A stretch of DNA of 64,000 nucleotides from an uncultured Gemmatimonadales bacterium. GTDB taxonomy: Bacteria; Gemmatimonadota; Gemmatimonadetes; Gemmatimonadales; GWC2-71-9. Location: positions 672,001-736,000 of the forward strand of contig CAWJIM010000019.1 of assembly GCA_963842945.1 (NCBI GenBank), in the 5' to 3' direction. The notes under the pieces are model-generated. The model was given only the letters and a program-made list of their open reading frames with translations. It did not search any database and had not been told where the DNA came from. Position 1 is the stretch's first letter; every line of letters begins with the position of its first letter. Positions 9,013 to 44,020 of this stretch are shown piece by piece. The translations under genes and the position numbers were made by a program.

Positions 9013-11048
9013 ATGCTCCCAAAGCTAGGCTGGCTTCTGGTCGCCCTCGTCGGCGCGGCGGGCTGGGGCATGCTCGCCCTCCACGGGGCGAGGCGGTCAG
9101 CGCCGCCTGGCTGGTGCTGGCCGCGGTCGGGACCTACCTCGTCGCCTTCCGCTTCTACAGCCGCTTCCTCGCCGATCGCGTCTTCGGTCTCGACGACCGC
9201 CGCGCCACCCCCGCCGAGCGCCTGGCCAACGGGCGCGACTACGTGCCCACCGGCCGATGGGTCCTGTTCGGCCACCACTTCGCCGCGATCGCCGGCGCCG
9301 GGCCGCTCGTCGGGCCCGTCCTCGCCGCCCAGTTCGGCTACCTCCCGGGCACCATCTGGATCGTCTTCGGCGTTGTGTTCGGCGGCGCGGTGCAGGACTT
9401 CATCATCCTCTTCGGCTCCATGCGTCGCGACGGCAAGTCGCTGGGCCAGATGGCGAAGGAGGAGACCGGACCGTTCACCGGCATGATGGCGATGGTCGCG
9501 ATCCTCGCGATCATGGTGATCCTGCTGGCGGTGCTCGCGCTGGTGGTCGTGAACGCGCTGCGGGACAGCCCGTGGGGCGTCTTCACCATCCTCTGCACCA
9601 TCCCCATCGCGATCCTGATGGGCTTCTGGATGAAGGTGTGGCGCCCCGGGAAGACGCTGGAGGCGTCGGCGTTCGGCGTCGCGCTCCTCCTGCTCGCGCT
9701 GGTGGGCGGCCGCTACGTGGCCGAGTCGCCCACGCTGGCCCCGCTCTTCACCCACTCGGCGCTCACCATCGCCTACGGCATGATCGCCTACGGCTTCATC
9801 GCCAGCGTGCTGCCGGTGTGGATGCTGCTCTGCCCGCGGGACTACCTCTCCACCTTCATGAAGATCGGCACCATCCTCCTGCTCGCGCTGGGGATCCTGG
9901 TGGTGCTGCCGCCGCTCAGCATGCCGGCGATGACGCGCTTCATCGACGGCACCGGGCCGGTCTTCGCGGGCAAGCTCTTTCCCTTCGCCTTCATCACCAT
10001 CGCCTGCGGCGCGATCAGCGGGTTCCACGCCCTGGTGGCCTCGGGCACCACGCCCAAGATGCTCACCCGCGAGAGCGATGCCCGCCTCATCGGCTACGGC
10101 GGCATGCTCATGGAATCATTCGTCGCGGTGATGGCGATGTGCGCCGCGGCCGTGCTCGACCCGGGCGTCTACTTCGCGATCAACGTGCCGCTCGCGACGC
10201 TGGGCGGCAGCCTCGAAACGGCGGCGGAGACCATCCGGAGCTGGGGCTTCGCGGTGACGCCGGAGCAGATGACCGCCCTCGCCGCGTCGGTGGGCGAGAG
10301 TACCCTGCTCTCCCGCACCGGCGGCGCGCCGTCGCTGGCGGTCGGCATGGCCCACATCTTCAGCGGCGCGTTCGGCCAGGGCCTGATGGCGCTCTGGTAC
10401 CACTTCGCCATCATGTTCGAGGCGCTCTTCATCCTCACCACGGTGGACACCGGGACTCGGGTCGGCCGCTTCATGCTCCAGGAGCTGGCCGGACACGTCT
10501 GGAAGCCGCTGGGCCGCACCTCGTGGTACCCGAGCATCGTCCTCGCCTCCGGGCTGGTCGTCGCCGGCTGGGGCTACTTCCTGGTGCAGGGCGTGCTCGA
10601 TCCGCTGGGCGGAATCAACTCGCTCTGGCCGCTGTTCGGGATCAGCAACCAGCTGCTCGCCTCGGTGGCGCTCTGCGTGGGGACGACGCTCCTCATCAAG
10701 GGCGGGAAGGCGCGCTACGCCTGGGTCACGCTGCTGCCGCTCGCGTGGGTGCTGCTGGTGACCCTGACCGCCGGCTGGCAGAAGGTGTTCGCGGCCGACC
10801 CCCGGCTCGGCTTCCTGGCCCACGCGGCGGTCACCGCGCAGCAGGTGGCCGACGGCACGATGGATCCCGCGCGCGGCGCGCGCCTGATCTTCAACGACCG
10901 GCTCGACGCGGTCGTCGCGATCTCCTTCATGCTGGTCACGCTGCTGGTGGTGGTGGCGTCGGCGCGCGAGTGGGTGCTGGTGCTGACCCGGCGGAAGCCG
11001 GCGCGGGTGCAGGAGAGTCCGTTCGTGGAGACGGCGTATGTGGGCTAG
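9013..11048 (+). CDS. cstA: Carbon starvation CstA family transporter; frameshift near 9090
   Basis: GHHFAAIAGAGPLVGP, ACGAISGFH, LWYHFAIMFEALFILT, WPLFGISNQLL; N-terminus in ORF 9013. Confidence 0.92.
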
Positions 11049-11242
11049 GGCGACGGGCTGGCGCGGAGCGTGTCGCCGCGGCCCTGAGCGCGGTCCGCCG
11101 GGTGGCGGGAATGCCGGACTACGCGGCCCACCTCGAGCACCTCCGGCGCTGTCACCCCGAGCGCGCCGTGCCCACCGAGCGCGAGTACTTCGAGCAGTAC
11201 GTCGCCGCCCGCTACGGCGACGGCCCCACCCGCTGCTGCTGA
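11038..11242 (+). CDS. YbdD/YjiX family small CstA-associated protein; apparent frameshift near the start
   Basis: GMPDYAAHLEHLRRCHP...EREYF...RYGDGPTRCC directly after cstA. Confidence 0.85.
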
Positions 11243-26437: not shown

Positions 26438-26463
26438 CGTCGCAGGCCCACTTGCACGACCGG
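26438..26463. repeat. 26-bp direct repeat, copy 1
   Basis: cgtcgcaggcccacttgcacgaccgg identical to 33785..33810. Confidence 0.9.
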
Positions 26464-26547: not shown

Positions 26548-26676
26548 TTACTTCTTGGTCACCGGGAGGCCGGCCTCGTTCCAGGCCGTCCAGCCTCCCA
26601 GCAAGGCCCTGGCCTTCTTCCATCCTGCCTGACGGAGCTCTCGCGCCACCCGGGCGCTTGTGGCTTCGTCCTTTCA
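26548..26676 (-). pseudogene. Displaced original 3' end of the antiporter-rhodanese gene (attR-like, copy C)
   Basis: TGA then KDEATSARVARELRQAGWKKARALLGGWTAWNEAGLPVTKK*; first 71 nt identical to the copy at 38581; tail has host-like GC-ending codons; no upstream gene body. Confidence 0.85.
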
Positions 26677-27285
26677 AATAGATGTTCCCAAACCACAAGG
26701 ATCGGTACGGGGTAAGTCGGTACGCTTCCGTTAGTTTCCGACAATGAACCGCGCTTCGGTCGAGACCGTTTCCTGTGCAAGCAACGGAGTAGCGGAGAGC
26801 AGCGGGCAGAACACCAGCAAGCTGGTTGATCTCACTAGCACTCCCGTTTGGGCGGTTGGCCTACACTGCTCCTGCCACCTTCGTGGGAACTAGGCGGGGT
26901 GACGTCGTTTGTGGCGCCCTGGAGCAAGGTGGACTTTCAGCCACGAACGGTCGCGGGACTCACGAGATGTCGCGGGGCGACCGGCCCATCGCGGCGATGG
27001 ACCGGGCGGACCGACTGATGCTTGGAGCAGTAGCGGGGATCACGACCCAAACGTAGACGCCGTTCCACTTCTACGATGTGGCGGCCCAGAGGATGGGGGT
27101 GCGGGAGGCGCGTCAAGTGCCCGAGCGAAGCGTCCCCGCGTTATCTCTAGAGCTTACCCTTGTTTCTGTACCAGCTACTTCGGGCGGCCCGAAGACTTAC
27201 GAGTTCACCGTGATGCAAGGGAGAGTGGAGTTCCTTAACGAGAAACCGTTTTAGCCCTTAGCTGGCATTCAGCTCGAACCCACAG

Positions 27286-27314
27286 CGGAATCTACGGACC
27301 GAGGGTCCAATGGG
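27286..27314 (+). repeat. 29-bp direct repeat, left of the copper module
   Basis: cggaatctacggaccgagggtccaatggg identical to 33320..33348. Confidence 0.9.
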
Positions 27315-27368
27315 GTCTGGGAGTTTCATGATTGCCCTCCCTACCGGGTATCACCCGGCATTTCGGCC

Positions 27369-27770
27369 TCACTCCGGCGGGTGATGAGCCGCATGATTGG
27401 TCGTGTCAGCCGTCGCATCAGGGCTCGGCATCGCCTTCCGCCCGGGTGCCGTTGAGTCTTTCATCATCCCCATCATGCCCCCACGCTCCATCATCTGATG
27501 CATGCGCTCCTGCATCGCCTTCCGCTGAACGACTAGCTCGTTTATGACGGCCGCCATGGACTGCACCTTCTGGTTGCCGCTTGTCCGATTCATCCGATCC
27601 ACAAGGCTGTCGAGACGGCGGTTGAGGGAATCCATCATCATCATCGACATCTGATTCTTGCCCGCGATTTCACGATGACCATCAGGAGTCGACGCCCCGG
27701 GCTGCTGCGCGGCAACCGTTGAGGCGCTCAAGACCAGAGCGGCGATGCCGCCGACTAGTCGTGACATCAT
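27369..27770 (-). CDS. Met-rich secreted protein, candidate Cu(I)/Ag(I) binder
   Basis: Signal peptide; MSMMMMD, MHQMMERGGMMGMM, HAAHH; last gene of the Cu-ATPase cluster. Confidence 0.7.
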   Translation of the reverse strand: MMSRLVGGIAALVLSASTVAAQQPGASTPDGHREIAGKNQMSMMMMDSLNRRLDSLVDRMNRTSGNQKVQSMAAVINELVVQRKAMQERMHQMMERGGMMGMMKDSTAPGRKAMPSPDATADTTNHAAHHPPE

Positions 27771-27797
27771 TTGTAGCCTCCGATTCGGTTTCCCAGC

Positions 27798-28106
27798 TTA
27801 CGTCTGGACCCGTGACCACCACACGTAGCCCCCCAACGCGAGCAGCAGCAGCCAACAGGTCCAGTACGCCCACACCGTCCAACGCGGTCTCGCCTCCCCC
27901 AGGGAAGTGTCCAGATGGTGCTTCTGGTACATGGCCAGCGCGTGCACCACTCCACCCACCACCAAGAGCGGTACCGCCATTGTCTCCAAGGCCTCCTTGA
28001 ATAGCAGGGCGAGGCCAGCTCCGAGCACACCAGCACCTAGACCGCCAAGCAGCTCTGTTCGCGCTCGCTCGCCGATGTACCTGCTGCTGGTCCGAAGCAC
28101 CGTCAT
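27798..28106 (-). CDS. Small membrane protein
   Basis: Three hydrophobic helices; GGVVHALAM; YWTCW. Confidence 0.65.
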   Translation of the reverse strand: MTVLRTSSRYIGERARTELLGGLGAGVLGAGLALLFKEALETMAVPLLVVGGVVHALAMYQKHHLDTSLGEARPRWTVWAYWTCWLLLLALGGYVWWSRVQT

Positions 28107-28240
28107 ACGCGCCTCACCAAGGAATCGACGGAAACGATAGCTCGGTTCTCATGAAGAACCGGTGAAGGTCGTGCGAGACTACCTTCAACGGTCACAGCCC
28201 TCGGCTGCACGGAAACCCACTGCAGCAGAGACATTAGCGG

Positions 28241-30421
28241 CTAGATAGCCGAGCGGCGCAGCAGCTGGGCATTCACGGCCACGATGATTGTGCTCAGTGA
28301 CATCAGGACTGCTCCAATAGCAGGCGAGAGCAGGATGCCTTGCCGTGCCAATACCCCGGCGGCAAGCGGGATCGCCACCACGTTGTAGCCTGCCGCCCAC
28401 CACAGGTTCTGGACCATCTTCCGGTAGGAGGCCCTGCTGAGCCGCACGATGCGCGGCACGTCTCTGGGGATCGCTCCGAACCAGCACGATGTCCCCAGCC
28501 TCAACTGCGACGTCGGTGCCAGCGCCGATGGCCACGCCAACATCGGCCGAGACCAAGGCCGGGGCATCGTTGACCCCGTCGCCCACCATGCCGACCCTTT
28601 CACCGGCTCGCTGAAGTTCTTGAATCTTGTTGACCTTGTCTTGCGGCAAGACCTCGGCGAACACTGTGTCGATGCCCAGCTCGGCAGCCACGGCCTCCGC
28701 CACCGGGCGTGCATCGCCGGTCAGCATCACCACTCTGATGCGCTGGTCGTGCAGCTCCTCGACCGCTGCCTTGGATTCCGGGCGTACCACATCCGCCACG
28801 ATGAACACGGCCAGCGCTTGCACGCTATGCTCACTGCCCGCTTCCTCGGCCAGGAAGATGGCGGCCTGTCCTCGCCTCGCGGCCTGATCCATGGCTGTGC
28901 GCAGGGAATCGGGAACAACAACAGAGCGCGCCTTGAGCAACGCCGGGCCCCCTATCAATAGCGTCCGACCATCAACCCGCGCGCTGACCCCTACGCCGGG
29001 AATGGCGCGGAAGTCGGTGGCTGGCGGCGAGACGATTCCCCGTTCCTTGGCAGACCGGACGATGCCCTGTGCGATGGTGTGCTCCGAGTCCCTCTCGACC
29101 GCTGCTGCCAGCTGCAGCGCCTCCTCGTCGGTAATGCCACCAGCGGTGGCGATGCCGACCACACCGAACTCGCCCCGCGTCAGGGTTCCGGTCTTGTCGA
29201 AGACCATGGCGGTGAGATTGCGGGCCTCCTCCAAGCCGCGCCGGTCCCGCACCAGGAGCCCAGCCCGTGCGCCCAGCGTGGTGGAGATGGCAATGACCAG
29301 CGGCACGGCCAGGCCAAGGGCATGGGGGCAGGAGATCACCAGCACGGTGACCAGGCGCTCGACCGCGAACGCGGGATCGCCTCGGATGGTCATCCACGCC
29401 ACGAACGTCGCCGCCCCCGCGACGATGGCCGCAATGGTGAGCCAGAATGCCGCCCGGTCAGCCAAAGCCTGCGCCCGCGAGCGTGAGGACTGCGCCTGTT
29501 CGACCAGGCGCATGATGCCAGCGAGGGCGGTCTGTTCGCCCGTGCCGGTGACGCGGACACGTAGCGACCCAGCACCGTTTACCGTTCCGGCGATCACACG
29601 GTCGCCCGGGCCTTCTTCACTGGTCGCGACTCGCCAGTGATCATGGACTCGTTGACCTCGCTCGCACCCTCCTCAACTACGCCATCGGCCGGGATACTCG
29701 CGCCGGGGCGTACCAGCACGAGGTCTCCGACCTTGAGCGCGCTGATCGGGACTTCCTCGACCTCCTCACCCGCCACTCGGAGCGCGGTGTTCGGCAGGAG
29801 CTTCGCCAGCTCACGTAGGGCACCCTGGGCCTGGGAAATCGACCGCATCTCGATCCAGTGGCCCAGGAGCATGATCGTGACCAGCGTGGACAGCTCCTCC
29901 CACAGCGGCATGCCCGGATAGCCCAGCGTCACGGCCGCGCTGAAGACGAACGCGACTGAGATGGCCAAGCCGATCAGCGTCATCATGCCGGGAAGCCGGG
30001 CGCGCAGCTCACGCCAGGCACCCTGGAGGAACACGAGTCCGCCGTAGAGGAACACCGCCGTCCCGAACACCGGCGCGATCCACTGTTGGCCGGGCAGATT
30101 GGGTGGTGTGTACCCGAGCGCCCGGGGCAGCATGTGGCCCCAGCACGAGCGTCGGAAGGGTGAGCGCCAGCGAGATCCAGAACTTGTCCCGGAACATCGC
30201 TACGCTGTGACCCGCATGTTTGTCGTGGCCTTCGTGCCCTGGATGCTCATTGTGTCCGCCGTGGCCCAGGTGGCCAGCGTGGCCTGTCATTTCTGGGTGT
30301 TCGGGGTGGCCCACCGCGACTGGCTCCTCGGCCATGGCACCGTGAACGTGATCATGAGCATGCCCCGGGGCGGTTGCCCATCGCCATTCCCTCCGGATGG
30401 CCGATCGGTGTGGTCCCTCAT
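28241..30421 (-). CDS. copB: Copper-exporting P1B-type ATPase (CopB/P1B-3-like); several frameshifts
   Basis: His-rich N-terminus, [26 protein letters not shown] (CPH), [22 protein letters not shown] and MSLST, spread over ORFs 30009, 29594, 28185, 28241. Confidence 0.9.
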
Positions 30422-30947
30422 GTCGCACTCATCTCCCTGGAAGTCTGCGCTCGGGCGCTCCCGATCCTGCCCCACGGCTTGTACACCGACAGTGCGGTGA
30501 CGGTGAGCAAGACCAGAAGGCCACCCACCGCATGCACCACGAGCTGGATGCGCAACAGCCTGAAGTCGCCGGTGGACAATGTCGTGGCCACTGCGATTCG
30601 GGCCATGCGACTCACGTTCGGGATGTGCATCAACAAGACGCCCGTGGCGACCGTCGTCAGAACGAGCTTCGCCACGATCCAGTAGTGACGGAACAGCCCC
30701 CACTCCGTCCCAAGTGCCTGAACGACTCCTGAGATCAGGGTGGCGAGGCTCGACGGAATGATGACAGCCCATCCAATCGGCTCCATGCTCCGATAGGCGG
30801 CGCGTGCCATGTCGTCGTCTCGGCTGACGATGCCGACAACCGCGAGGGACAGGTAGCGGCAGCCGCGCCGAGCCAGCCAACCGATACGGTGACGTGCGAC
30901 GTCAAGACGAACTTGCGTAGGCGAGACGACATCATTCGTGGGCTCAT
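30418..30947 (-). CDS. DUF2269-like membrane protein; frameshift near 30860
   Basis: LRKFVLTSHVTVSVGWLGA; LGTEWGLFRHYWIVAKLVLT; LSVYKPWG. Confidence 0.7.
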
Positions 30948-30997
30948 AAGACTCACCTCAGTGCTGGTTCCGCACGGTAATGGTTAGGCTTGACGGC

Positions 30998-32471
30998 CTA
31001 CTCGTGCTCGTGATCGGGCATTACACCTCTGGGCATGCCCTCCTCCGGGTTCTCATCCCGATCTCCAGCGTGCGCCCGCTGCAGCAGCGTCGGCCGTAGC
31101 CGGACGTACAGCGCGAGGCCAGCAGGTGTGCGGGTGCCATAGGTGTCCTTGAGATCCTGGGGCACGAGGTTGAGCGAGCCCCGGAGACCCAGGCCGAGAC
31201 TCGCGCCGCCGTACTGCACGACCTCCCGCACATAACCGAGCACGAGGCTGGACACGTTGAAGCGGGTCTCTGGGTTGATACCCGGCACGACCAGCTCCTC
31301 GGCGCTTTTCTGTACCCACTCGGCCCGGCCGAAGATGCTGTTCCGCTGGTCGAGCTGCAGGTTGGTCTCCAACAGGAGGCTGTGCTCGAACCCCTGCGAC
31401 GGCTCTCTCGGCACCGTGTGCTTGTTTGCGCCGTAGACCAGCGCGCTGGCCCAATCGCCATCGCGGGCGATTCGCCTGGTGTACAGGATAGACGCACTGA
31501 GCCGGTGCTGGTTTTCGTCGGGGTGCAGCTCCTCGGGACTCTTGAGGTAACCGTAGCTGGCCGCCATGCTCCAGTGCGGGGTCGGATTCGCTGTCAATCG
31601 CCCGCCGTAGGAGTCGAGCGCGCCGAAGTCGAAGTCGTAGCGGTCGTCATCGGGCTCGCGGCCCTGGAAAAGCGTGCCTTCCACCTGCACGGTGCGCGTG
31701 AATACGCCCGCCGTGACGACACCGTAGGTAATGTGGGTCGCGTCTTGCCAATGGTGCCCAAGTGGGGCGAACGGGTCGTTCTGGGCCGATGGACGGTGCA
31801 TGTAGGCCACCGGCCCGATGGCGGGCTCGCCAACAGGGGCCGCGAAGATTGAGACGCCGAGATTCCTCCCGACGGGCACCTCGTAGCGCGCGGAAAGCTC
31901 CATGAACAGATCGTGCGGGTGCTGCCGATCCCGGAGCGGCTCGCCTTGGTACGACTCGCCGGTCTGAAGCAAGCAGCGGGTAGCCGCGAGCGCCGACGGT
32001 GAGCGGTTCAGCGCTGAGCATTCCATGCAGGTGGAGCATACCGCGCCCGACCGGACGCATGGCCATGAGCATCGCCCAGTTGGTGCTGCCGACCTGGTCG
32101 TCACCCCGCACTGTGCCTTGGTGGTCGTAGTACAAGGCCACATCTCCATGGACCATCAGCGTCCAGCGGTCGGCCATGAAGTGGTAGGCACGCATCGGAG
32201 ACGCGTCGGGTAGCCATGACGTGCCGGAGCCCATCCTGGTCATGGGAATACCGAGCGGGCGCGGCGGCATCCCCATGCCCGGCATCTGCCCGGTGTTGGT
32301 GGTGTCACGCATGGCCATGGAGTCGGCTGACGTGTCTGCGTGCTCGGGCTGGTGGTGATGCTCGTGCTGCTGGGCACCGGCCACGGACCGAGCCCAGAGC
32401 AGGGCCAAGGCCAGCATCAGGAGCGCGTGCGGGTGCCCGGCCGCTTTTCGCCTGGCCAGTCGGTCAGGCAT
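30998..32471 (-). CDS. Putative outer-membrane protein with His/Met-rich N-terminus; frameshift near 31975
   Basis: Signal, QQHEHHHQ, GSGTSWLPDASPM, QTGESY, DRQHPHDLFMELS, LGHHWQDATHI; amphipathic beta-strand pattern. Confidence 0.75.
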
Positions 32472-32525
32472 CGTGATCCTCCTAGTCGTGGTGACCCTGG
32501 TGCCCGTGCGGCCCAGGTGAGCGGA

Positions 32526-32939
32526 CTAGGCGATCAGTTGTGGGGGTGGAGTATCCGGTGGAGGAAACGGCGGAGTGGGCCTGCCGACGGGCGAGATCGA
32601 CCGCCACCCGGTGGCTAGAAGGTCATCAACTGTCGCACGCGATGGTGGGACCGCCGTGCTGGACGACCCGGTGCATGGCGAAACCTGGGCGCACTCGGAC
32701 GCGGGACAGTGGGCGCACCCGTGATCGTGGCGCTGGCTCCAAGATTGAAGGTCGTGTTCGTGTGCCATCGAGGACGAGGCTGCATGCTGCCCGGCCCGCT
32801 CGTGTTGGGCGCAGTGGGGCCGTTGCAAGGCGTCCACCCCGACGCTCGGCGTGGCTACGATGCCCAGGGCGAGCATGAGCAGACGAAGGACCCGAGAGGG
32901 CCACGAGTTGGGTGTTCCGACCATCATGATTGGGACCAT
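32526..32939 (-). CDS. Small His/Cys-rich protein (DUF2946-like architecture)
   Basis: TM segment, HCAQH, HDHGCAHCPASEC..C and Pro-rich end PDTPPPQ, upstream of the OM protein gene. Confidence 0.55.
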   Translation of the reverse strand: MVPIMMVGTPNSWPSRVLRLLMLALGIVATPSVGVDALQRPHCAQHERAGQHAASSSMAHEHDLQSWSQRHDHGCAHCPASECAQVSPCTGSSSTAVPPSRATVDDLLATGWRSISPVGRPTPPFPPPDTPPPQLIA

Positions 32940-33196
32940 AGGCGCACCGACAATAAATCGCAAATGGAGCACGCCACCCCGGTAGCGTCCGGTTTTGACT
33001 GTAACACCTCCTATCTGTAGGTTGGTGGTGGCAAGCATCCCCGCCGGGGAGGACCTATGGCAGGGGCCAACTGCGGTTGCACCAAGGGCTGTTGCGATAC
33101 AGGGTGTTGCTGCGGTACCAGCGCCTGCGAGTGCGGGTGAGCGCGGCGGGCGACTGAGCGAAGGCCGGGGAGCGTCCCCTGCCTTCTTCCGTTCTG

Positions 33197-33295
33197 CTAC
33201 TCCACCCGCGCCGTCGCGGGGTCCATGAGCGCGAAGATGTCCTTCACCGTCCAAACCCATAGGGCATCGCGCCCCGATGGCCACCGGGCGTTTTG
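33197..33295 (-). pseudogene. Degenerate C-terminus of an IS1-like/DDE transposase
   Basis: Across shifted frames KTP-VAIGA...VWTVKDIFALMDP, resembling the TPAMAAG..DHVWT.EEI..L terminal motif; recognised by eye only. Confidence 0.35.
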
Positions 33296-33319
33296 TATAA
33301 GTCAAAACCGGACACCAAC

Positions 33320-33348
33320 CGGAATCTACGGACCGAGGGTCCAATGGG
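33320..33348 (+). repeat. 29-bp direct repeat, right of the copper module
   Basis: Identical to 27286..27314; contains GAGGG RBS and the ATG of the next ORF. Confidence 0.9.
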
Positions 33349-33511
33349 AGCAAGATCGAAGGGGAACCCACCCCGGAAGCGGGGACCGAAGCCAGACACC
33401 TTGGTCCTGCCCGGCAAGTGGGAGAAGAACGTCGGGAAGGCCCTCAAGAAGCCACCGCCCAAGGCCAGCTGGCCCAAGCCACCGAACAAGAAGGGCCGGG
33501 GCGGCAGGTAG
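33344..33511 (+). CDS. Small Lys/Pro-rich basic protein (55 aa)
   Basis: MGARSKGNPPRKRGPKPDTLVLPGKWEKNVGKALKKPPPKASWPKPPNKKGRGGR; RBS upstream and hairpin plus T-run at the end. Confidence 0.55.
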   Translation: MGARSKGNPPRKRGPKPDTLVLPGKWEKNVGKALKKPPPKASWPKPPNKKGRGGR

Positions 33512-33527
33512 CCCCGGCCTTCGTTTT
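33494..33527 (+). terminator. Rho-independent terminator candidate
   Basis: ggccggggc-N8-gccccggcc followed by ttcgtttt. Confidence 0.55.
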
Positions 33528-33550
33528 GACTTCTTGCCTAGCCCTGTGCG

Positions 33551-33694
33551 TCAAGTACCTACTCCTGGTTTTTTCACTACTTGTAAACCCGCTTCGTTCC
33601 ACGCGATCCAGCCACCGACCAGCGCTCTGGCCTTCCTCCATCCCGCCTTTCGGAGCTCTCGCGCCACCCGGGCGCTTGTGGCTTCGTCCTTTCA
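33551..33694 (-). pseudogene. Second displaced 3' end of the antiporter-rhodanese gene (internal att-like, copy B)
   Basis: TGA then KDEATSARVARELRKAGWRKARALVGGWIAWNEAGLQVVKKPGVGT*; first 44 nt identical to copies A and C. Confidence 0.85.
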
Positions 33695-33784
33695 GGAGAA
33701 CGATCTACTAACACCAAGTGTCCGCGGATCCTGCCCGTCGGCCTTGTACTGGATCGGGAGCGGCAGGACACGCGGATCGTCGGG

Positions 33785-33810
33785 CGTCGCAGGCCCACTT
33801 GCACGACCGG
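33785..33810. repeat. 26-bp direct repeat, copy 2
   Basis: Identical to 26438..26463. Confidence 0.9.
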
Positions 33811-33902
33811 AAATACCTTTCCGCTTTGCTCTGGCCGCTGCCAATGCCCAGCACTATCCTTTCTCAACTTCCCATTCCGACGTCCAATGCGACAGGCCCT
33901 GA

Positions 33903-36843
33903 GTGGCAGCGCTGCCTGACGACCTGCAGGCGGCACTCGCCGACCGCTACAGAATTGACCGCGAGCTGGGTCGCGGTGGCATGGCCACGGTCTACCTCGT
34001 CCACGACCTGAAGCACGATCGCCGGTCGCTCTCAAGGTGATGCACCCAGAGCTTGCCCCCTCCTCGGGCCTGAACGGTTCCTGCGGGAGATCAGGTTCGT
34101 GGCGCGGCTTCAACACCCCCACATCATCACCGTGCTGGACTCCGGCGAAGCCGCCGGGCAGCTCTGGTACACGATGCCCTACATACGGGGCGAGACCTTG
34201 CGCCAGCGACTGCGCCAGGAAGTGCAGCTGCCGGTTGAAGCGGCCGTGGACATCGCTCGGCAGGTGGCGCTCGCGCTCGACTACGCGCACCGCGAGGGGG
34301 TGGTCCACCGCGATCTGAAGCCTGAGAACATCCTCCTGACAGAAGACCAGGCGCTAGTCGCGGACTTTGGAGTGGCCAAGGGGCTGGAGGCAGGCGGCCG
34401 GGCGCAGCTCACCGAGACGGGGATGGCCGTAGGTACCCCCACCTACATGTCCCCCGAGCAAGCCAGCGGCGGGGCAGTGGATGCTCGCTCAGACGTCTAC
34501 GCACTCGCCTGCGTGCTTTACGAAATGCTCGCGGGCGAACCGCCCTACACTGGCTCCACGCCCCAAGCCATCTTCGCCAAGCGAGTCTTGGAGCCGGTGC
34601 CGCACGTGCGCACGCTGCGTCAGAGCGCGCCGGAAGGGGTCGAGCAGGCGATCACGAAGGCGCTCGCGACGGTCCCGGCGGATCGGTTCCAGAGCGCCGC
34701 AGAGTTCGCCCGGTCGCTCATGGTGGCACCTCCGACGGAGGTAGTGGCCGCCACTCCCGCCGCGCCTCAGGTTACTCCAAAGAGCGAACGGCAGGGAATG
34801 CCGCGCCGGTTCCTGGCTCTCGGCCTGGCGACGATTCTCGCCCTGGGAGCCGGGGGCGCGTTGCTGTTGCGCTCTAGGGCCACCCCTGCGGCGCTTGATG
34901 CTGACCTTGTGGCTGTCGCCCCGTTCGACGTACTCTCGCCCGGCCTTGAGCTGTGGCGTGAAGGTCTGGTGGATCTCCTGGCGCGCAGCCTCGACGGTGC
35001 GGGCCCACTCCGCACCGTCTCCCCGACGGTAGTCATCCGCCGGTGGGATGGCCGGGCGGACCGATCCTCAGCTGAGGCGCTCGCACGGCGCACGGGAGCC
35101 GGACTCGTTATTTACGGGTCGGTCGTGCCCGAGAGCCGCGATTCGGTTCGGGTAACAGCCGCCGTACTCGACGCCGGACGCGCCGAGGCCGCCGCCGAGG
35201 CCGAGGTGCGCGGCCCCGCCGACCAGCTCGCACGGCTCGGCGACTCCCTTGCCCTGCGATTGCTCGCTGAGCTTGGGCGCGCCCGACCGCTGAGCGCGGC
35301 GCGCTCGGGCGGAGTCGGCTCGCGCTCACTGCCGGCTGTCCGAGCCTTCCTGCGGGGGGAACAGTGGTTTCGGCGCACCGCGTGGGACTCGGCCCGGGCG
35401 AGCTATGAACGTGCGGTTGAGCTGGACAGCACTTTCGCGCTCGCGTATTGGCGGCTCGGTGCCGTTCGCGACTGGCAAGATGGCTTCAGTGGACTCCCTC
35501 TCGCGGGCCTACTATCGCCTCGCTGGCGAGCGCAACCACGGGCTCCCACCCCGAGAGAGCCTGCTGATGACGTTCGACTCATTGAAGGGGACCCTCCTCG
35601 ACGAGGGCTTTCTCTCCGACTCAGCCTCGGAGCAGCAGGTGCAGCGGCTGTTCCGTATTGCCGAGGAGACGACGCGACGGTATCCGAATGACCCAGAAGG
35701 TTGGGTGGCGCAAGGCGAGGCGGGAGTGCACTTCGGTGCGGGCCGAGGGGTAAGCGATGAGACAACCCTCAGCGCGTTTGCCCGTGCCATCGCGTTGGAT
35801 TCGGCCTACGCTCTGAGTTACATCCACGCATGGCAGCTGGCAGCGTCGCTCGACGACTGGCCTACGGCCCGCCAGTACGCACTGGGCTTTCTCGCCCTAC
35901 GCCCGGGGCGGAAAGAGGCGATCGCTGCGCGGACGGCCATCCACATACTCAATCGGCCCCCGGCGGGCGAGGTAGGCCGCCTGTTGGACACAATTCCCCT
36001 GCACGTCCTTATCGCTGTCGTCAACGCGCTTCGTAGCCACCACCGACTCCGAGGAGGTCGGGGTGGCAGTCGGTCGGGCGTTCGTCGCCGCGCCGCCGAC
36101 CCCAGACGGGCCAGAACTAGATAGAGAGACTCGGGAGGCTCTTTTTGCGGCCACCCTCGCCTATCGTGGGCATCTTCGGGAAGCCTCCCGGCTCCTCGCC
36201 CGCCACCCCGGGGTCATGGCGTGGGGTACGTTCACCGAGTTGGCGCTGCTAGGGCTGATACCGGCGGACACTGTGGACGCCGTGTTCGAGCGCCAACTTC
36301 GCGAGGGTCCTACTCGCCATGCGATCGGGCACCACCTCCGTCTCGGTTTCCCGCTTCCATGGTGGGCCGTTAGGCGCGACACTACCAGGCTCAAGCGCTA
36401 TGCCTCGCGTCTCAGCTGGCGAGGACCGGCGGAGAACGTGCCGCTATTGGATCGCTATCTGCATGCGGCCTCGAACGCCTACCTGTCGCTTGCCCGAGGC
36501 GACTCGGCGGAGGCGGCGGCTCGCTTCCAAGCCCTCCCGGCAACGGTGGGAATGGTGTGGTACGAGCGGCTGACGCTCGCACGCTTGCTTGCGGCGCTCG
36601 GGCGAGAACGCGAGGCACTGGACGTGCTAGACCGCGAGTTCCCGTCTGGGGCTTGCCATCTCTGCACGTGGCACGTGGGCCTTGGAGCGGGCGCGCTTGG
36701 CCGAGAAACTGGGCCAGCCCGAGAAGGCCCGTCACTGGTACGGCTTTGTAGCCCGGCTGTGGCGGCACGGCGACCCTGAGCTGCGGCCTGCCGTGGACGA
36801 AGCGCGTGAGGCGCTGACGCGACTTACCGGCGAGCCGCAGTGA
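33903..36843 (+). CDS. Ser/Thr protein kinase with TM helix, TolB-like and TPR regions; multiple frameshifts
   Basis: LADRYRIDRELGRGGMATVY, HRDLKPEN, DFG, GTPTYMSPE, VAVAPFDV, LDSTFALAYWRL, ends WRHGDPELRP; ORFs 34099, 35405, 36063. Confidence 0.88.
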
Positions 36844-36890
36844 CCTGTACCTGCTTCTTCGTTGGGTTTGGCTACTGCATCGCGTGCCCG

Positions 36891-37487
36891 CTACTCAGGC
36901 TCGTGGCCGTGATGCAAGGATCGCAGAGGGGGCTGGAGCGCCATGCGGCGGCGAAGCTCCATCAAGGCGATCATGAGATCGCCGCTCTTGGCCATCTGAT
37001 CTCTTGCGATCGTCCGTTGTCGTTCGGCCAATGAGCGCGATTCGGCGGCATCCGCACGCGCTTGCCGCGCCTGCCGACGCATCGCTTGCGAGCTGAGGAC
37101 CAGCGGCGCAAGCGTTCGCACCAACTCCTCTGGCTCGAACGGCTTCCGCAGGAAGGGCACCGGAAGGAGGTCGGGTGGGAGGTCGACCGCTGCCGACATG
37201 GCCACGACGGGTAATGCAGGGCGGCATTCCATGAGTACCGCGATCAATTCGGAGCCGGATACGACCGGCATCTTCAGGTCGGTCAGGACCACGTCGAGCA
37301 GCTGAGCCTCGTCCCGCTCAATCACCCGAATGGCATCCTCGCCGTCGGCGGCCTCGATCACGGAGGTTCGCTCCAGCTGCAGCATCCTGCGGAGTGATCG
37401 GCGCAGCGATGGATCGTCGTCCACGATGAGCAAGGTCGCTCCGTCGGGGATCTGGAAGCACGTGGTCTGGGTATCCACATTGCTCAT
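36891..37487 (-). CDS. Response regulator receiver with C-terminal coiled coil
   Basis: LIVDDD, VVLTDLKMPVVSG, FLRKPF. Confidence 0.85.
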   Translation of the reverse strand: MSNVDTQTTCFQIPDGATLLIVDDDPSLRRSLRRMLQLERTSVIEAADGEDAIRVIERDEAQLLDVVLTDLKMPVVSGSELIAVLMECRPALPVVAMSAAVDLPPDLLPVPFLRKPFEPEELVRTLAPLVLSSQAMRRQARQARADAAESRSLAERQRTIARDQMAKSGDLMIALMELRRRMALQPPLRSLHHGHEPE

Positions 37488-37594
37488 AATGCGCTTCCGT
37501 GTCCAAGCTGCCCTGACCACCAAAGTATGCACTCGGTGCCCCGGATGCACAGATGTGTTGCCGATCACAGAGGGCGGGCGGAAAGGCTCTATCT

Positions 37595-37792
37595 ATGGCC
37601 ACATGTCGGCAACAGACTCACCTTCCGATCCGCCCGACCGGTCCCGCGTTCTCCGCTGGTACCAGCGAGGATCTCCGCCAGCACTCCCGCACGCTCCGCC
37701 AGCACGCACGCCGGCTGATCGAGAGCAGCCGCGAGCTTCGGGACCGCCTAGGCAGCTTCCTCAAGCCACCCCCGCCCACCCAGTCAGCCTGA
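37595..37792 (+). CDS. Possible small coiled-coil protein
   Basis: SEDLRQHSRTLRQHARRLIESSRELRDRL heptad pattern; start uncertain. Confidence 0.35.
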   Translation: MATCRQQTHLPIRPTGPAFSAGTSEDLRQHSRTLRQHARRLIESSRELRDRLGSFLKPPPPTQSA

Positions 37793-37868
37793 CCCCCACG
37801 CTTCGCCGTGCGTCAGGGGCGGCCCGGAGACAGCGCGGATCAGATGATCCGCGTTTGTCCTTTCGGGG

Positions 37869-38261
37869 TCATGCCTCCCTTCGCATTGGTCGCTCCGCCA
37901 TGGCCAGCGCCACTGATTCCAGCAGCGCCCCAATGCTGAACGGTTTGCGGAGCGTGGGCACCGCCTCAGCGTGCGGTCCGATGGGCCTGGCGAGATCGTC
38001 CAGGTGGAGGATGGGAAGATGGGGGAACAAGCGCCGCAAGTGGCCGATCAACTGTTCACCACTCATGTGCGGCATGTAGCTGTTGGTGAGGACCAGATCG
38101 AACGAGATACCCGCCGTCTTGGCCGCCGTCAGACCTGCCTCGCCATCCCCTACTGCAACGACCTCGTAGCCCGCTTCCTCTAAGGCGCGCACGATGAGTG
38201 CGCGGACGGCGGGCTCGTCGTCCACCACAAGAATGCGGGACGGTCGGTCGGTCGGCGGCAT
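37869..38261 (-). CDS. Single-domain receiver with Asn at the phosphoacceptor position
   Basis: ILVVDDE, DLVLTNSYMPHMSG, LRKPF. Confidence 0.85.
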   Translation of the reverse strand: MPPTDRPSRILVVDDEPAVRALIVRALEEAGYEVVAVGDGEAGLTAAKTAGISFDLVLTNSYMPHMSGEQLIGHLRRLFPHLPILHLDDLARPIGPHAEAVPTLRKPFSIGALLESVALAMAERPMRREA

Positions 38262-38443
38262 GGGCCGGTCGGTGCGGTCAGGGCAAGTAATCCGATATTC
38301 TACGCCGGACACTCAGCGCCGTCCATGGCCCAAATTGCCTATACCTCCCGGGCCGACAGCCCCAGCCCTAGTGCTCTACTGCACGCCGCCGAAGGGTGCA
38401 GTAGAGCACAAGCGTGTTCAATCCCGCTCAAACCAAGGGGATC

Positions 38444-40060
38444 CTATTCTGCCGGTTTGGCAGACACTGGTAACCCCGCCTCATTCCACGCGTTCCAGCC
38501 ACCGACCAGCGCCCTGGCCTTCTTCCATCCTGCCTGACGGAGCTCTCGCGCCACCCGGGCGCTTGTGGCTTCGTCCTTTCAGGTACAGTAGAGGACCAGT
38601 GTCGCGTCGGGATCGAGCCTCCGCTCCCGCGCGAGGCGCACCGCGTCGTCGGGCGGCATCCGGATCGCGTCGCGGGCGATCGCGGCGGAGTCGCGATAGC
38701 TCCGCTCGGTCCGCACGTCCAGCAGGGTCACCGGCTCCCCGCGCTCCTGCAGGTCGCGAAGCTCCTCGATGGTGATCTTCTCCGAAAGCTGCGGCGCTTC
38801 GCCCGGGGCGGGCCCGAACGAGATCTCCTCCGGCTTCTCCGGCCGGGGCGCGGGCGCCGGGGCCTGCTCCGATCGCGCGCGGCGGAGAAAAATCGCGATG
38901 CCGGCGCCGTGCACCACCACCGATAGCAGGACCACGAGGCAGGTGATCTGGAACAGGCGCACGGATCCCTCGACCCCCGCGAACACCGGCAGCAAGGCCA
39001 GGAGCAGCGTGCTCAGGCCGCGCGGCCCGAGCCACGCGATCAGCCGCCGGCTCCGCGGCTCGACCCCGCCCAGCCGCAGCACCGGGATCAGGACCGCCGT
39101 GCGCAGCCCCAGCGCGAGCACCGCGAAGGCCAGCGTCAATCCGTCCGCCACCTGGAAGCCGGTCCAGATCACCGAGGCACCGAACGCCACGAACGTGAGC
39201 AGCAGGAACATCTCGGCCGAGGCTTCGCCGTAATCCAGGAAGCAATCGCACAGCTCCACGTCCATCGCGGCCACCATCAGCCCGCCGGCGAACGCCGCGA
39301 GGAACCCGCTGCCGCCCACCGACTCCGCGGCCGCGAACGCGGTGAACGCCACACCCAGCGCGTAGAGCGACTCGTAGTCCCGGCGCACCCCGACCTTCGA
39401 TCGCACCCGGTCGAGGAGGGCGATGGCGACGTAACCCACCCCCACGCCCAGCGCCGGCCCCAGGATGAAGAGGCCCATCGCGCGGCGCGAGACATCGGCA
39501 TCGGACGCGCCTCCCGCGCCCAGGGCCAGACTGGCGAGCACCACGACGGGGAGGAGGATCACGTCGTTGCTCCCGCTCTCGAGTCGGAGGGCCAGGCGTG
39601 CGGGGGGCGGGAGCGCCGGACTCCGGACCAGGGTCCGCAGGAGGACCGGGTCGGTCGAGGCCAGCGCGGCGCCGAGAATCGCGGCGCCGGCGGGCGGCAG
39701 GCCGAGCAGGAGCCAGGCGGCGAGGGCGATGAGCGCGGCCGGCAGGATCGTGCCCGGCCCCAGGATGAGCAGCGCGAGCCGCCGCTGCTCCCGCACTTCG
39801 CCGATGTCGACGGAGATGGCGTCGCTGAACAGCACCAGCACCAGGGCCAGCGTGGCGAGGACCTCGAGCGACTCCGACTCGAGCGAGAACTCCACCACGC
39901 CCAGACCGGCGGGGCCCAGCATGGCGCCGAGGAGGAGGAAGATCGCGACCTGGGGCACGCCCGACCGCTCGACCGCGCCCGACAGCAGCGAGGCGGCGAT
40001 GATGACGACGCCGATGAGCGCGAGCGCGGCGACGAAGGGATCGTGGAACATGGTCCTCAT
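38444..40060 (-). CDS. CPA1 cation:proton antiporter fused to a C-terminal rhodanese domain, predicted selenocysteine at TGA 38581-38579
   Basis: LVLFSDA, ASTDPV, LRLESGSND, WLGPRGLST; rhodanese LLDVR...LVLYCT*KDEATSARVARELRQAGWKKARALVGGWNAWNEAGLP continues in frame for 44 residues past TGA to TAG at 38444. Confidence 0.85.
38550..38581 (-). promoter_or_regulatory. Candidate bacterial SECIS hairpin directly 3' of the UGA
   Basis: UGA AAGGACGAA GCCAC AAGCGCCCGG GUGGC: GCCAC/GUGGC stem 9 nt after UGA; invariant in all three copies; not tested with a SECIS model. Confidence 0.5.
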
Positions 40061-40112
40061 TATGGCAGCGTACTGGCGGTCACCGCCAGCCGCATGGTAA
40101 CCTGGATTCCTG

Positions 40113-41595
40113 ATGCCCACGAGCGAGCCGACCGCCACCGCCATCCTGCTCACCATCTGCGGAATCCTGCTGCTGGTGAGCGTGCTCTCCAGCCGCGCGT
40201 CCCAGCGGATCGGGGTCCCGATCGCGCTGTTCTTCCTCCTCGTCGGCATGCTGGCCGGGTCCGAGGGGATCGGCGGGATCCCGTTTGCCGACTACCGGCT
40301 CGCCTTCCGCATCGGGGCGGTGGCGCTGGCGCTCATCCTCTTCGACGGCGGACTCAACACCCCGCTGGACGTGGTGCGCCGAGTCTGGGCTCCGGCGGGC
40401 GTTCTCGGCACGGTCGGGGTCCTGCTCGTCGCGGGGCTGGTCGCGATGGTGGCACGGCTGGGCGGACTGCCCTGGCCCGCCGCGCTGGTGCTCGGGGCCA
40501 TCGTCTCGTCCACCGACGCGGCCGCCACGTTCGCCGTGCTTCGGGCCAGCGGGCTTCAGCTCAAGCGGCGGGTGGCCGCGACGCTGGAGGTCGAGTCCGG
40601 CGCCAACGATCCCGCCGCGGTCATCCTGACCACCACGCTCGCCTCCAACCTCCTCGGCGCCGGGGCACCTCGGCCTGGGCGAGATGCTCGTCGAGATCGT
40701 CACCCAGCTGGTGATCGGGGCCGTGGTAGGCATCGGCGCCGGCTACGCCGGCCGCGCGCTCATGGCCCGGCTCCAGCTGATGACCGGCGGCCTCTACCCG
40801 GCGCTGATGCTCGCGTTCGGCTTCCTCTCCTTCGGGGTGGCAACGCTGGTCGAGGGGAGCGGGTTCCTGGCGGTGTATGCCACGGGGATCGTGCTCGGCA
40901 ACGGTCCCCTGCCCTATCGCGCCGGTCTGCTGCGCATCTTCGACGCGCTCGCCTGGCTGGCCCAGATCGGGATGTTCCTGCTCCTGGGGCTGCTGGTGTT
41001 CCCCTCGCGCCTGGGCGAGATGGCGGGACTCGGGCTCGGCATCGCACTGCTGCTGGCGATCCTGATCCGGCCGCTGGTCGTCGCGCTCTGTCTGGCACCG
41101 TTCCGCTATTCGGCACGGGAGATCGCCTTCATCGGCTGGGTGGGCCTCCGCGGCGCGGTGCCGATCGTGCTGGCCACCTACCCGGTGCTGGTCGGTGCGC
41201 CGGGCGCGGACCGGATCTTCCACCTCGTGTTCTTCATCGTGGTGGTCGGCGCCATCATCCCCGGCGGCACCGTGGCCTGGGCGACCCGGCGCCTCGCCCT
41301 CGAGTCGCCCCAGCCGCCCGCGCCGCACGCCCTCCTCGCCATCGAGTCGCGGGTGCCGCTCGAGGGCGACCTGATGTCCTTCTATATAGACGATGCGCTG
41401 GTGGTGTGCGGGCTGAGGCTGGACGAGCTGGATTTCCCCGAGGGCGCCGCGGTCGCGCTCATGGTCCGCGGGGACCGGCTGGTGGCGCCCAGGGGCAGCA
41501 CCCGACTCGAGCCGGGCGACCACGTGTATGTGGTCGCCCAGGAGGAGGACCGGCCGTTCATCCAGCTGATGTTCGGAAGGCCGGAGGAGGATTGA
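40113..41595 (+). CDS. cvrA: K+/H+ antiporter NhaP2/CvrA type with TrkA-C domain; frameshift near 40670
   Basis: GMLAGSEGIGGI, LILFDGGL, SSTDAAATF, LEVESGANDP, WVGLRGAVPIVLATYP, PRGSTRLEPGDHV. Confidence 0.88.
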
Positions 41596-41601
41596 TCGGG
41601 T

Positions 41602-44020
41602 TCAGTCGGACCTGAGTGCCACGACCGCGTCCTGCCGGCTCGCGCGCCACGCCGGGAGCAGCGCTGCGAGCAGCGCCACCATCGCGAGCACGCCCGCGAC
41701 CGCGGCATAGGTCGGCAGGTCGTGCGGCCCCACCTCGAAGAGCAGCCCCCGCACCAGCCGAGCCAGCGCGGCCGCGAGCCCGGCGCCGACGACGAGCCCA
41801 ACCAGCGCGAGTCCCGCGCCCTCCCGCAGCACCTCCATCCGGATCCGCCCCGCGCTCGCGCCGAGCGCCATGCGGATACCGATCTCGCGGGTGCGCTCCC
41901 GGGTCGTGAACCAGAGCACCCCGGCGAGCCCGACCGCGGCCAGCAGGAGCGCGGAGATCCCGAAGGTGCCCAGGAGCATGGTGGTGAAGCGCGGCCGAGC
42001 GAGCGCGGCCGACACCATCGCGCCCACGGTGGCGACGTCGAGCAGCCGCACGCTCGGCTCCAGCGCCGAGGCCTCTCGGCGGAGGGCCGGCAGCAGCGAG
42101 GCCGGATCGGCAGTGGTGCGGATGACGAGATGGTTGAGCGGCCAGGGGCTCTGCTCGTAGGGGACGTACACGTCGAGGCTCACGCTCTCGAGCCCGCGGT
42201 AACGGCCGTCCTCCACCACCCCGACCACTTCCAGCCAGGGCGCGGGTCCGTCGGGCCCGCCCCACTTGATCCGCCTGCCGACGGGATCGTCGCCACCCCA
42301 GAAGCGCCGCGCGACCGACTCCCCCAGGATCACCACCCGCGGCGCCTCGGCGCGGTCGCCCGCGGTGAACCCGCGGCCGCGCAGGACGCGCAGCCCGGTG
42401 CTCTCGAAGTAGCGCGGGGTGACCGCCTCGTAGTTGAGGAAGGGATAGCTCTTCTGCTCGTCGGCGGTGCGGCCCTCGATCGTGAACGGATAGTCGAATC
42501 CCTGCGGACCCTCGAGCGGCCGCACCAGCACGCCGGCGGCAGCCTCCACTCCCGGCAGCGCCTCCGCGCGCTCCACCAGCTGCCCGAAGAACGCGTGCGA
42601 CTTCTTCGCCTCGGCCAGGTCGGGAGTCGACGGGAACACCTGGAGCGTGAGGGTGCGATCGGGATCGGGGCCGGGATCCACCGCACGGAGTCGGAGGAAC
42701 CCGTTGAGCAGGAGCCCGGCTCCGACGAGGAGCACCATCGCCACCGCGGTCTCCCCGACGACCAGCAGCCGAAGGAAGCGGCGCGCTCCCCGGCCGCTGG
42801 AGGTCTTGCCGCCGTCCCGCAGGACCGACTGCACGTCGGTCCGCGCGCCGGTCAGCGCGGGCGCGAGCCCGAAGCCGGTCGAGGCCGCGAGCGCGACCAG
42901 CAGCGCGAACGCCAGCACCGAGCCGTCCATCGTCACCGATTCGGCCCGGAACAGCTCGGCCGGCACCATGGCGCCCAATGTGTGCACCGCGCCAAGGGCC
43001 AGCAGCACGCCGAGCGCGCCGCCGACCGCGCCGAGCACGAGGCTCTCCAGCAGCAGCTGACGCACCAGCCGGCCGCGTGCAGCGCCGAGCGCGGTGCGCA
43101 CCGCCAGCTCGCGACGGCGGGCCGGCGCCTGCGCCAGCAGCAGGCTCGCGACGTTGACGCAGGAGATGACCAGCACCAGCGCGGTGGCGCCGAAGAGGAC
43201 GAGCAGCACCGGCCGCACCCGGCCGGTCAGCCGCTCGCCGAGCGGCTCGATCGTGGTCGCCAGGTGCAGGTCGGGCGGCAGCGCCTCGCGCGCCGCTTCG
43301 TCCGCCACGCGCGACAGCTCGCCGGCCGCGGCACTCGGCGTCACACCGGGCCGCAGCCGACCGATCACCGAGAGGAACCCGATCTCTCGTTTGTCCACCA
43401 GCGAGTCCACCGCCGGCTCAACCGCGCGCCAGAAGCCTGCGCCACGCGGGTAGTCGAACGCCGGCGGCATGACGCCGACGACGGTGTGGGCGATCCCGTC
43501 GATCGCGCACGCTCCGGCCGAGCGCGTCATGTGTCCCGCCGAGCTCGCGCCGCCACAGCGCATCGCTCAGGACCAGCACCGGCGCGGCGCCGGGCCGGTC
43601 GTCGGCGGGCTCCAGCGCGCGGCCGATCGCGGGGCGGACGCCCAGGAGATCGAAAAAGTGGCCCGAGACCATGAATCCCGCCGCCGGCACCGGCTCGCCG
43701 CCGCCTTCCCACACGACCCGCCCGAGGGCGGTCTGATGCGCGGCGAGATCCTGGAACGAGCGCGAGCGCGCCCGCCAGTCGCGGAAGTCGGGGTAGGAGA
43801 TCTCGAGGCGGGTCTCCGGCCGGGCGGCCGGATGGAGATCCACCGCGACCAGCTCGTGGGGAGCGCGGAACGGGGGCGGACGAAGGAGCACGGCCCGGAC
43901 CACGCTGAAGAGCGCCGTCACCGCGCCGACGCCGAGCGCGAGGGTCAGCGTGGCGGCGATGGAGGCGGCGGCGTGGCGGCGAAGGCGGCGAAGCGCGAAG
44001 CGGAGGTCGGAGGCGGTCAT
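41602..44020 (-). CDS. ADOP-type duplicated MacB/FtsX ABC permease; frameshift near 43530
   Basis: DLRFALRRL...TLALGVGAVTALFSVV, ISCVNVASLLL, RELAVRTALGA, RTREIGIRMALGA, PAWRASRQD. Confidence 0.9.

Follow-up and report, generated by a model that had tools for sequence, protein, structure and literature searches.

The CPA1-rhodanese locus

The gene of interest lies on the minus strand of the window (the whole stretch of DNA analysed, 64,000 nucleotides long). Under translation table 11 its frame ends at LVLYCT (ORF 38579..40249), in the middle of a domain; a first, sequence-only reading of this DNA had reported the same, and our re-analysis agrees. When the TGA is read as selenocysteine (Sec), 44 extra codons follow before a TAG at 38444. 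The read-through product carries a Pfam Na_H_Exchanger domain (residues 22–393) and a complete Rhodanese domain (residues 431–527), such that the second half of a rhodanese fold, which the first reading had recognised beyond the TGA, becomes part of a whole domain. Residues are numbered according to the 538-aa form that begins at an in-frame ATG at 40060.

Table 1. Features of the CPA1-rhodanese locus and of the DNA inserted at its UGA (positions in the window).
Feature	Position	Strand	Remarks
CPA1-rhodanese gene, read through UGA	38444..40051	minus	535 aa from ATG 40051
CPA1 (NhaP-like) transporter domain	38882..39997	minus	Pfam, PaNhaP alignment
C271-D-C273 transporter motif	39242..39250	minus	aligns approximately with PaNhaP 287-289, start of helix H10, near Glu290/His292
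Rhodanese-like domain, NF041203-like, loop C492-T-U494	38480..38770	minus	Pfam and NCBIfam profile
In-frame TGA, putative selenocysteine 494	38579..38581	minus	both insertions begin here
SECIS-like apical stem-loop	38548..38562	minus	5-bp stem; 5-nt loop CGGGU, the loop beginning 21 nt after UGA
Weaker lower stem of SECIS-like hairpin	38539-38572	minus	
Second CPA1 (NhaP2/CvrA-like) gene, divergent	40113..41615	plus	frameshifted in assembly, without C-D-C
Tail A, 3' end now joined to gene, probably from cassette 1	38444..38581	minus	GC3 0.70 vs 0.94 for gene body; same tail in L180
Cassette 1, 4.7 kb, GC 0.67	33695..38443		two response-regulator receiver genes, Ser/Thr kinase-TPR gene
Tail B, orphan 3' end starting at TGA (33694-33692)	33551..33694	minus	gene-attached in L173/L174 and L183
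Cassette 2, 6.9 kb, GC 0.65	26677..33550		small basic ORF 33344-33511, heavy-metal-type P-ATPase, neighbours
Tail C, displaced native 3' end, TGA 26676-26674	26548..26676	minus	126/126 nt identical to gene-attached tail of L057

The native neighbours of the fusion gene are the second CPA1 gene, a lipoprotein gene, a MoxR ATPase gene and ATP synthase genes. The second CPA1 gene stands head to head with the fusion gene across a gap of ~60 nt, a pairing also seen on another contig of the genome (C21) and in relatives, and the two genes may be co-regulated. Contig C21 holds a second full CPA1-rhodanese gene, with the motif C-A-TGA (G000:C21:333186-334766; 63% identical) and a divergent CPA1 neighbour of its own. 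Two tRNA-Sec and two tmRNA genes are also found in the genome (contigs C1, C15, C10 and C16). Given 6% contamination, the second fusion gene and the doubled tRNA-Sec and tmRNA genes may come from a co-binned relative. Elsewhere in the window (~11045-11242, plus strand), a small Sel_put protein (PF04328, DUF466/YbdD-like) ends in R-C-C followed by a stop; it is the Cys form here.

Frameshifts in several genes (window positions 28185-30133, selA and selB) resemble long-read indel errors, and short-read contigs differ from the window by single-base indels at 28470 and 29604. Because single-base indels are numerous in this assembly (selA, selB and the neighbouring antiporter gene all contain them), a lone stop codon would be suspect; the TGA of the fusion gene, however, is not alone. 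Four RNA runs yielded short, low-depth pieces only.

The UGA is conserved and aligns with cysteine

TGA occupies the Sec codon in all 30 genus loci (the window's own locus counted) and in 80 of 80 GTDB loci, where TAA or TAG never occurs. The GTDB set comprises the best 80 of 94 confirmed relatives and overlaps with the 30 genus loci; four chance regex matches elsewhere in GTDB loci were dropped. TGA-type loci come from three phyla: Gemmatimonadota (the window's relatives are labelled Gemmatimonadales), Acidobacteriota (Blastocatellia) and Chloroflexota (Chloroflexales). A CPA1 domain lies in frame upstream of the TGA in 74 of the 80 GTDB loci, and in 75 the next stop follows after 41–51 codons. 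Since the TGA is shared by all 80 related loci, among them a 97%-identical short contig (L057), a sequencing error is ruled out. The first reading had called such an error unlikely on the strength of three diverged copies within the window; its verdict is borne out, by the related loci and not by the copies.

Cysteine is found at the same column in more distant homologues. Among the best 150 distant representatives, 66 have cysteine at both motif columns (C-x-C), 22 terminate at Y/F-C-x, and the remaining 62 belong to other rhodaneses; the Cys/TGA alternation that the first reading had proposed as a check is thus observed. Two of the C-x-C proteins, P0140 and P0194, are CPA1 fusions by both Pfam models, and a third fusion, P0124, has a CPA1 match below cut-off. 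In the TGA-type loci, the amino acids of the tail beyond the hairpin described below (W, G-G-W) are kept over 25 codons while synonymous codons vary freely, which points to protein-level selection after the stop.

Standard annotation truncates the gene, as had been foreseen: every one of the best 120 of 319 database proteins ends at Y-C-x, that is, at the TGA. It follows that a family which the majority of genomes in one common soil genus carry, and which extends to two further phyla, is mis-annotated.

A SECIS-like hairpin follows the UGA

Across 79 loci, synonymous codon identity reaches 0.87 at codons +6 to +10; the upstream and downstream flanks have values of 0.42 and 0.35. A GCGCC/GGCGC stem around a CG[G/U]GU loop is 100% paired in 70 distinct 45-nt sequences and belongs to the predicted minimum-energy fold. 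It displays 11 compensatory cells in two pairs—a number equalled by none of 500 shuffles—which may represent few evolutionary events. The lower stem is 77% paired in the same 70 sequences. Published bSECIS criteria comprise a loop of 3–9 nt, a stem of 4–16 bp, G then G/U at the loop start, a spacing of 16–37 nt and an MFE of -7.5 or below (PMC13188914, Fig 2 legend). With its 5-nt loop, 5-bp stem, 21-nt spacing and -18.3 kcal/mol, the hairpin falls within all of these ranges. In energy alone it is unremarkable (z of -1.89 over 48 nt, -0.61 over 60 nt), and a loose hairpin filter applied genome-wide passes 102 of 5242 Cys-adjacent TGAs, so the case for a SECIS rests on conservation. The same filter is too unspecific for finding other selenoproteins. 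Rfam at the gathering threshold returned no match in the window.

The first reading had singled out a different stem, GCCAC/GUGGC, close behind the UGA. This stem is present in the sequence, but it is not the conserved structure: it is 89% paired, one of its pairs is broken in 28 of 70 sequences, and it has undergone zero compensatory changes, whereas the overlapping GCGCC/GGCGC stem combines full pairing with compensation. By established Sec biology, SelB with Sec-tRNA would bind the latter hairpin and insert Sec; without Sec insertion, the protein would end mid-domain.

Selenocysteine machinery and other readings of the UGA

The Sec machinery that the first reading had asked to be looked for is present. 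Alongside the two tRNA-Sec genes, the genome contains selA and selD above cut-offs, the latter with an in-frame TGA of its own, and selB in frameshifted pieces that lie under cut-off as pieces; selA and selB are each split by single-base indels in this assembly. Within the genus, selA is found in 94 of 103 genomes and the tail peptide in 88 of 103 (both tallies include G065, an unpublished genome; a single genome makes no difference to them). selA is present in 80 of the 88 genomes with the tail peptide; the other eight, which gave no selA match, are 56–96% complete. Outside the genus, selA was found in four of five genomes searched, as was selD, the one lacking a match being G131 in either case.

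SelD itself alternates between Sec and Cys within the genus and order (L005, L184-L212), with 13 TGA and 12 Cys among 25 parsed loci and with selA kept; other selenoproteins, such as the CPA1 fusion, may hence be the reason that the Sec pathway is retained. At the same distance after the selD UGA as in the fusion gene, a stem averages 3.1 of 4 Watson-Crick pairs in the 13 Sec-type loci versus 1.8 in the 12 Cys-type loci, a comparison (25 of 30 loci parsed) that is confounded by protein constraint and kinship.

Were the UGA a true stop, the downstream 40 nt would be kept as a recombination site or some other DNA or RNA element, and the tail frame would be a relic. The same 44 nt do act as an insertion point here, and one genome labelled as a cyanobacterium (G131, locus L130) has the TGA gene with neither selA nor selD detected. 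Against this stand the W and G-G-W retained in the 25 codons past the hairpin, replacement tails that preserve the reading frame, and a codon that is always TGA and aligned with Cys. The L130 locus, moreover, looks like contamination: one third of it is N, and its pieces (60–70% GC) are 80–82% identical to a Chloroflexaceae locus, from which family its TGA gene likely derives as contaminating DNA. We consider a true stop very improbable. Read-through as Cys or Trp, via a suppressor or an altered genetic code, would in the case of Cys supply the homologous residue, and yet its probability is close to negligible: the only tRNAs with a UCA anticodon reported by ARAGORN are the two 98-nt tRNA-Sec, TGA terminates ordinary genes here (tail B), and the hairpin fits the SECIS model at a position like that of the one after the selD UGA.

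The central proposal of the first reading—a selenoprotein made by reading through UGA in a CPA1-rhodanese fusion—is thus supported by the presence of the Sec machinery and by a column that alternates between TGA and Cys. We conclude that the in-frame UGA is very likely decoded as selenocysteine.

Two insertions at the putative selenocysteine codon

The three diverged copies noted by the first reading do all contain the TGA, but two of them, B and C, are orphan 3' tails and not genes. In both, similarity to the gene sets in at the TGA (in B, two bases earlier); the sequence upstream is unrelated and contains no rhodanese N-half, which rules out three independent gene copies. The first 44 nt are identical among the tails. 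An assembly artefact is also ruled out, as short-read metagenome contigs share orphan tail C and its upstream junction. Contigs from four DNA runs cover parts of the gene and of the cassettes, none usefully spanning a junction.

Related loci provide several alleles of this site: (i) in L057, the empty allele (97% identical over the gene), the gene runs directly into tail C and then into the lipoprotein gene, the tail differing from A at 20 positions, (ii) in L173/L174 (one contig) and L183, the gene is followed by a B-type tail, 798 bp and orphan C, and (iii) in L180, the gene carries tail A. GC3 is 0.94 in the gene, 0.89 in C (host-like), 0.70 in A and 0.63 in B, and the inserted DNA (11.9 kb in total) has a GC content of 0.65–0.67 versus 0.73 for the gene. 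Together, the allelic series, GC3 values and tail identities indicate that C is the native end, that cassette 2 brought B, and that cassette 1 then brought A to the same point. The end of the target gene is repeated directly at both borders, and the empty site exists as an allele. About 6 kb of cassette 2, including the P-type ATPase gene, is flanked by 29-nt direct repeats (27286-27314 and 33320-33348); L174 and L183 lack this part.

No doubled tail was found in 129 other loci, and orphan tails occur at three of 50 metagenome sites. The only genus genomes with more than one match are G000, G015 (three full genes) and G068 (two matches). Insertion at the Sec codon is rare, and was seen in one species-level lineage only.

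In this lineage, two cassettes have thus entered the gene at the UGA, and each supplied a replacement tail (UGA, hairpin and last 41–46 codons), such that the gene stays whole. Site-specific integration at the UGA is, in our judgement, the most likely route, and we favour it with some reserve; the recombinase would since have been lost, or have been supplied from elsewhere. Searches of the window revealed no integrase either within or beside the cassettes (one search covered 92 of 136 six-frame segments) and no tyrosine or large serine recombinase; tblastn with the genome's four integrases found none in 205 related loci, viral contigs gave 0 matches with two patterns, and no conjugation genes were found. 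The contig joints listed from the four DNA runs include none that would mark an excised circle.

Since no integrase was found, homologous recombination on the conserved hairpin stays a rival. Circular foreign DNA would then have recombined with the hyper-conserved hairpin region through single crossovers of the RecA type, without a dedicated integrase, and so have given rise to the repeated tails. The negative searches of the window, related loci and viral contigs agree with such crossovers, and the 44 nt identical among the tails offer an ample homology anchor. Two features, however, argue against them. Firstly, the homology of two different donors starts no more than 2 nt from the TGA and in both extends to near the stop, like attP replacement fragments. 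Secondly, deletion accounts for remnants that lack an integrase, as is suggested by the 798-bp insert of L174. We regard the crossover route as doubtful, and retain site-specific integration as the preferred one.

Several further sequence elements were observed around the insertions. An exact 26-nt repeat has one copy at 26438-26463, in the native spacer that follows tail C downstream (a copy shared with L057, L174 and L183), and another at 33785-33810, in cassette 1 ~90 nt before tail B; the genome contains no third copy even when 4 mismatches are allowed, and the repeat may record an earlier capture of flanking chromosome. Just after tail A lies a strong hairpin (38368-38412; -29.7 kcal/mol), kept in L180. 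In 13 of 80 relatives, its 11-nt arm recurs as coding sequence 4–5 nt ahead of the TGA; the hairpin may be a terminator, a recombinase site or a product of chance. A long imperfect inverted repeat (33715-33790; -29 kcal/mol) directly precedes the tail B junction. Finally, the small basic ORF of cassette 2 (plus strand) is Lys/Pro-rich, encodes ~55 aa with no Pfam match, and occurs both within the 798-bp minimal insert and in the accessory patches of a few relatives. Its homologues are rare (4 of 301 family genomes); the neighbourhood of the one in L037 contains no tRNA and no evident integrase.

The C-D-C motif and predicted redox gating

The ion ligands of PaNhaP are E73, T129, D130, S155 and D159 (PMC4381880); in our alignment their equivalents are D80, T136, D137, S162 and D166. 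The transporter shows the sequence hallmarks of CPA1: PF00999, the TDP and ES-x-x-ND ion-binding motifs, and GPRG. It lies below the cut-off of every NCBIfam antiporter equivalog, and a PDB search with the transporter domain alone returned no match at E 0.01.

Within this domain lies a C-D-C motif in the context E-L-C-D-C-F. C-D-C-F is present in 67 of 67 full-length fusions, and C-D-C in 120 of the best 120 database proteins and in the Cys-type protein P0194. A phylum-wide draw gave matches in 30 of 251 genomes; 21 of these 30 loci have both C-D-C and the TGA rhodanese, and the other nine are distant CPA1s without a rhodanese, of which two have a different C-x-C in the corresponding position and two did not align. 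As two of these nine unfused CPA1s carry one, a C-x-C pair does not require the rhodanese. C-D-C aligns within one helical turn of PaNhaP Glu290 and His292, the register being approximate and the alignment gapped just upstream. In PaNhaP, these two residues of helix H10 lie at the cytoplasmic dimer interface and have a pivotal allosteric role; the C-terminus, too, is cytoplasmic (PMC4381880).

That the rhodanese domain regulates the antiporter, as the first reading had supposed, is suggested by one clue: the conserved C-D-C of the transporter. By disulfide, selenylsulfide or persulfide exchange, the cytoplasmic C-x-U could act on C271/C273, where H10 starts, and would thereby tune Na+ or K+/H+ exchange to the redox or sulfur state of the cell. 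Redox gating of transport through C-D-C is a prediction that we put forward tentatively.

The main rival to this relay also assumes that Sec is inserted. C-x-U and C-D-C would jointly bind a soft metal or a metalloid (Cu, Hg, Zn, As), making the protein a metal sensor or a metal-gated exchanger. Two C-x-C-type pairs offer four thiolate or selenolate ligands, and the intact Na+/H+ ligand set suits a sensor better than a metal carrier. The native neighbours, however, include no metal-related gene; the P-type ATPase sits in a recently inserted cassette; and Cys492 occupies the position that is catalytic in rhodaneses. We judge a metal site rather unlikely.

Implications

Overall, we consider it probable that the locus encodes a Sec-decoded CPA1-rhodanese with a predicted C-D-C redox switch, and that it has received tail-replacing insertions. 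A bolder conjecture, which seems to us somewhat unlikely, joins two claims: that a thiol relay from the selenocysteine domain gates a widespread soil-bacterial antiporter family at a dimer-interface allosteric site, and that the near-invariant SECIS of this family serves mobile elements as a tRNA-like attachment site. If true, ion and pH homeostasis would depend on selenium and redox state; the near-invariance of the SECIS would reflect the double demand of protein and RNA structure, and elements would need a functional Sec codon and SECIS of their own in order to repair the target.

Among the catalogued bacterial selenoproteins checked, we found no secondary ion transporter that has a selenocysteine domain built into it. 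With two cysteines, one putative selenocysteine and natural Cys-only versions as controls, the family offers a direct test case for redox control of CPA1 transporters. The insertions also show that a probable recoding signal can serve as a target for integration, of which natural empty, single and double alleles exist.

Comparison with known systems

Some integrative elements restore the conserved genes that they target, as do the tRNA-targeting ICEclc and, in prfC, SXT/R391, and tandem accretion occurs (PMC5812530). The insertions described here resemble them in three respects: (i) an element-borne copy of the gene end, (ii) tandem arrays at one site, and (iii) displacement of the native end to the far side. 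They differ in their target, a Sec codon together with its SECIS, which obliges the replacement to bring a working recoding signal, in that no integrase or conjugation genes were found here, and in having been seen in one species-level lineage only. No description of integration at a Sec codon, or of a CPA1-rhodanese selenoprotein, was found in the literature searched, which was mostly open-access.

The transporter resembles PaNhaP (4CZ8/4CZA) and NhaP2/CvrA (YcgO) in having PF00999 and a C-terminal cytoplasmic extension, with all five PaNhaP ligands matched; unlike these, the fusion has C-D-C at the start of H10 and a putative Sec rhodanese domain. DedA/VTT-rhodanese fusions (P0201, P0234, P0229, P0233 and P0265) likewise place this rhodanese subfamily, with a C-x-C-P-x-E loop, behind a membrane domain. 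That membrane domain is a different one, and the examples seen have Cys, not Sec.

The rhodanese domain, complete and with C-x-U in its active-site loop, is matched best by NF041203, 'rhodanese-related (seleno)protein' (E 1.6e-27, positions 21-126 of 126), at scores of 95.6 bits for the domain and 91 for the full protein that do not reach the cut-off of 115. Rhodanese-like selenoprotein form 3 (NF041203 rhodanese_LYCAU, C-x-U) is catalogued in PMC13188914 and PMC9312934. The word 'antiporter' is absent from the main texts of both, from the deep-Sep supplements, and from the available portion of the BSepDB supplement (a genome list only, with 323 Gemmatimonad mentions). The domain studied here shares the C-x-U loop and the LYCA/LYCT-U motif with NF041203, a 126-position model, and differs from it in being fused behind a CPA1 transporter; it is probably a relative rather than a member, belonging to or beside the catalogued family. 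The Sec rhodanese domain type is therefore already known; new, as far as the literature searched extends, is a probable hidden selenoprotein that joins such a domain to a CPA1 antiporter.
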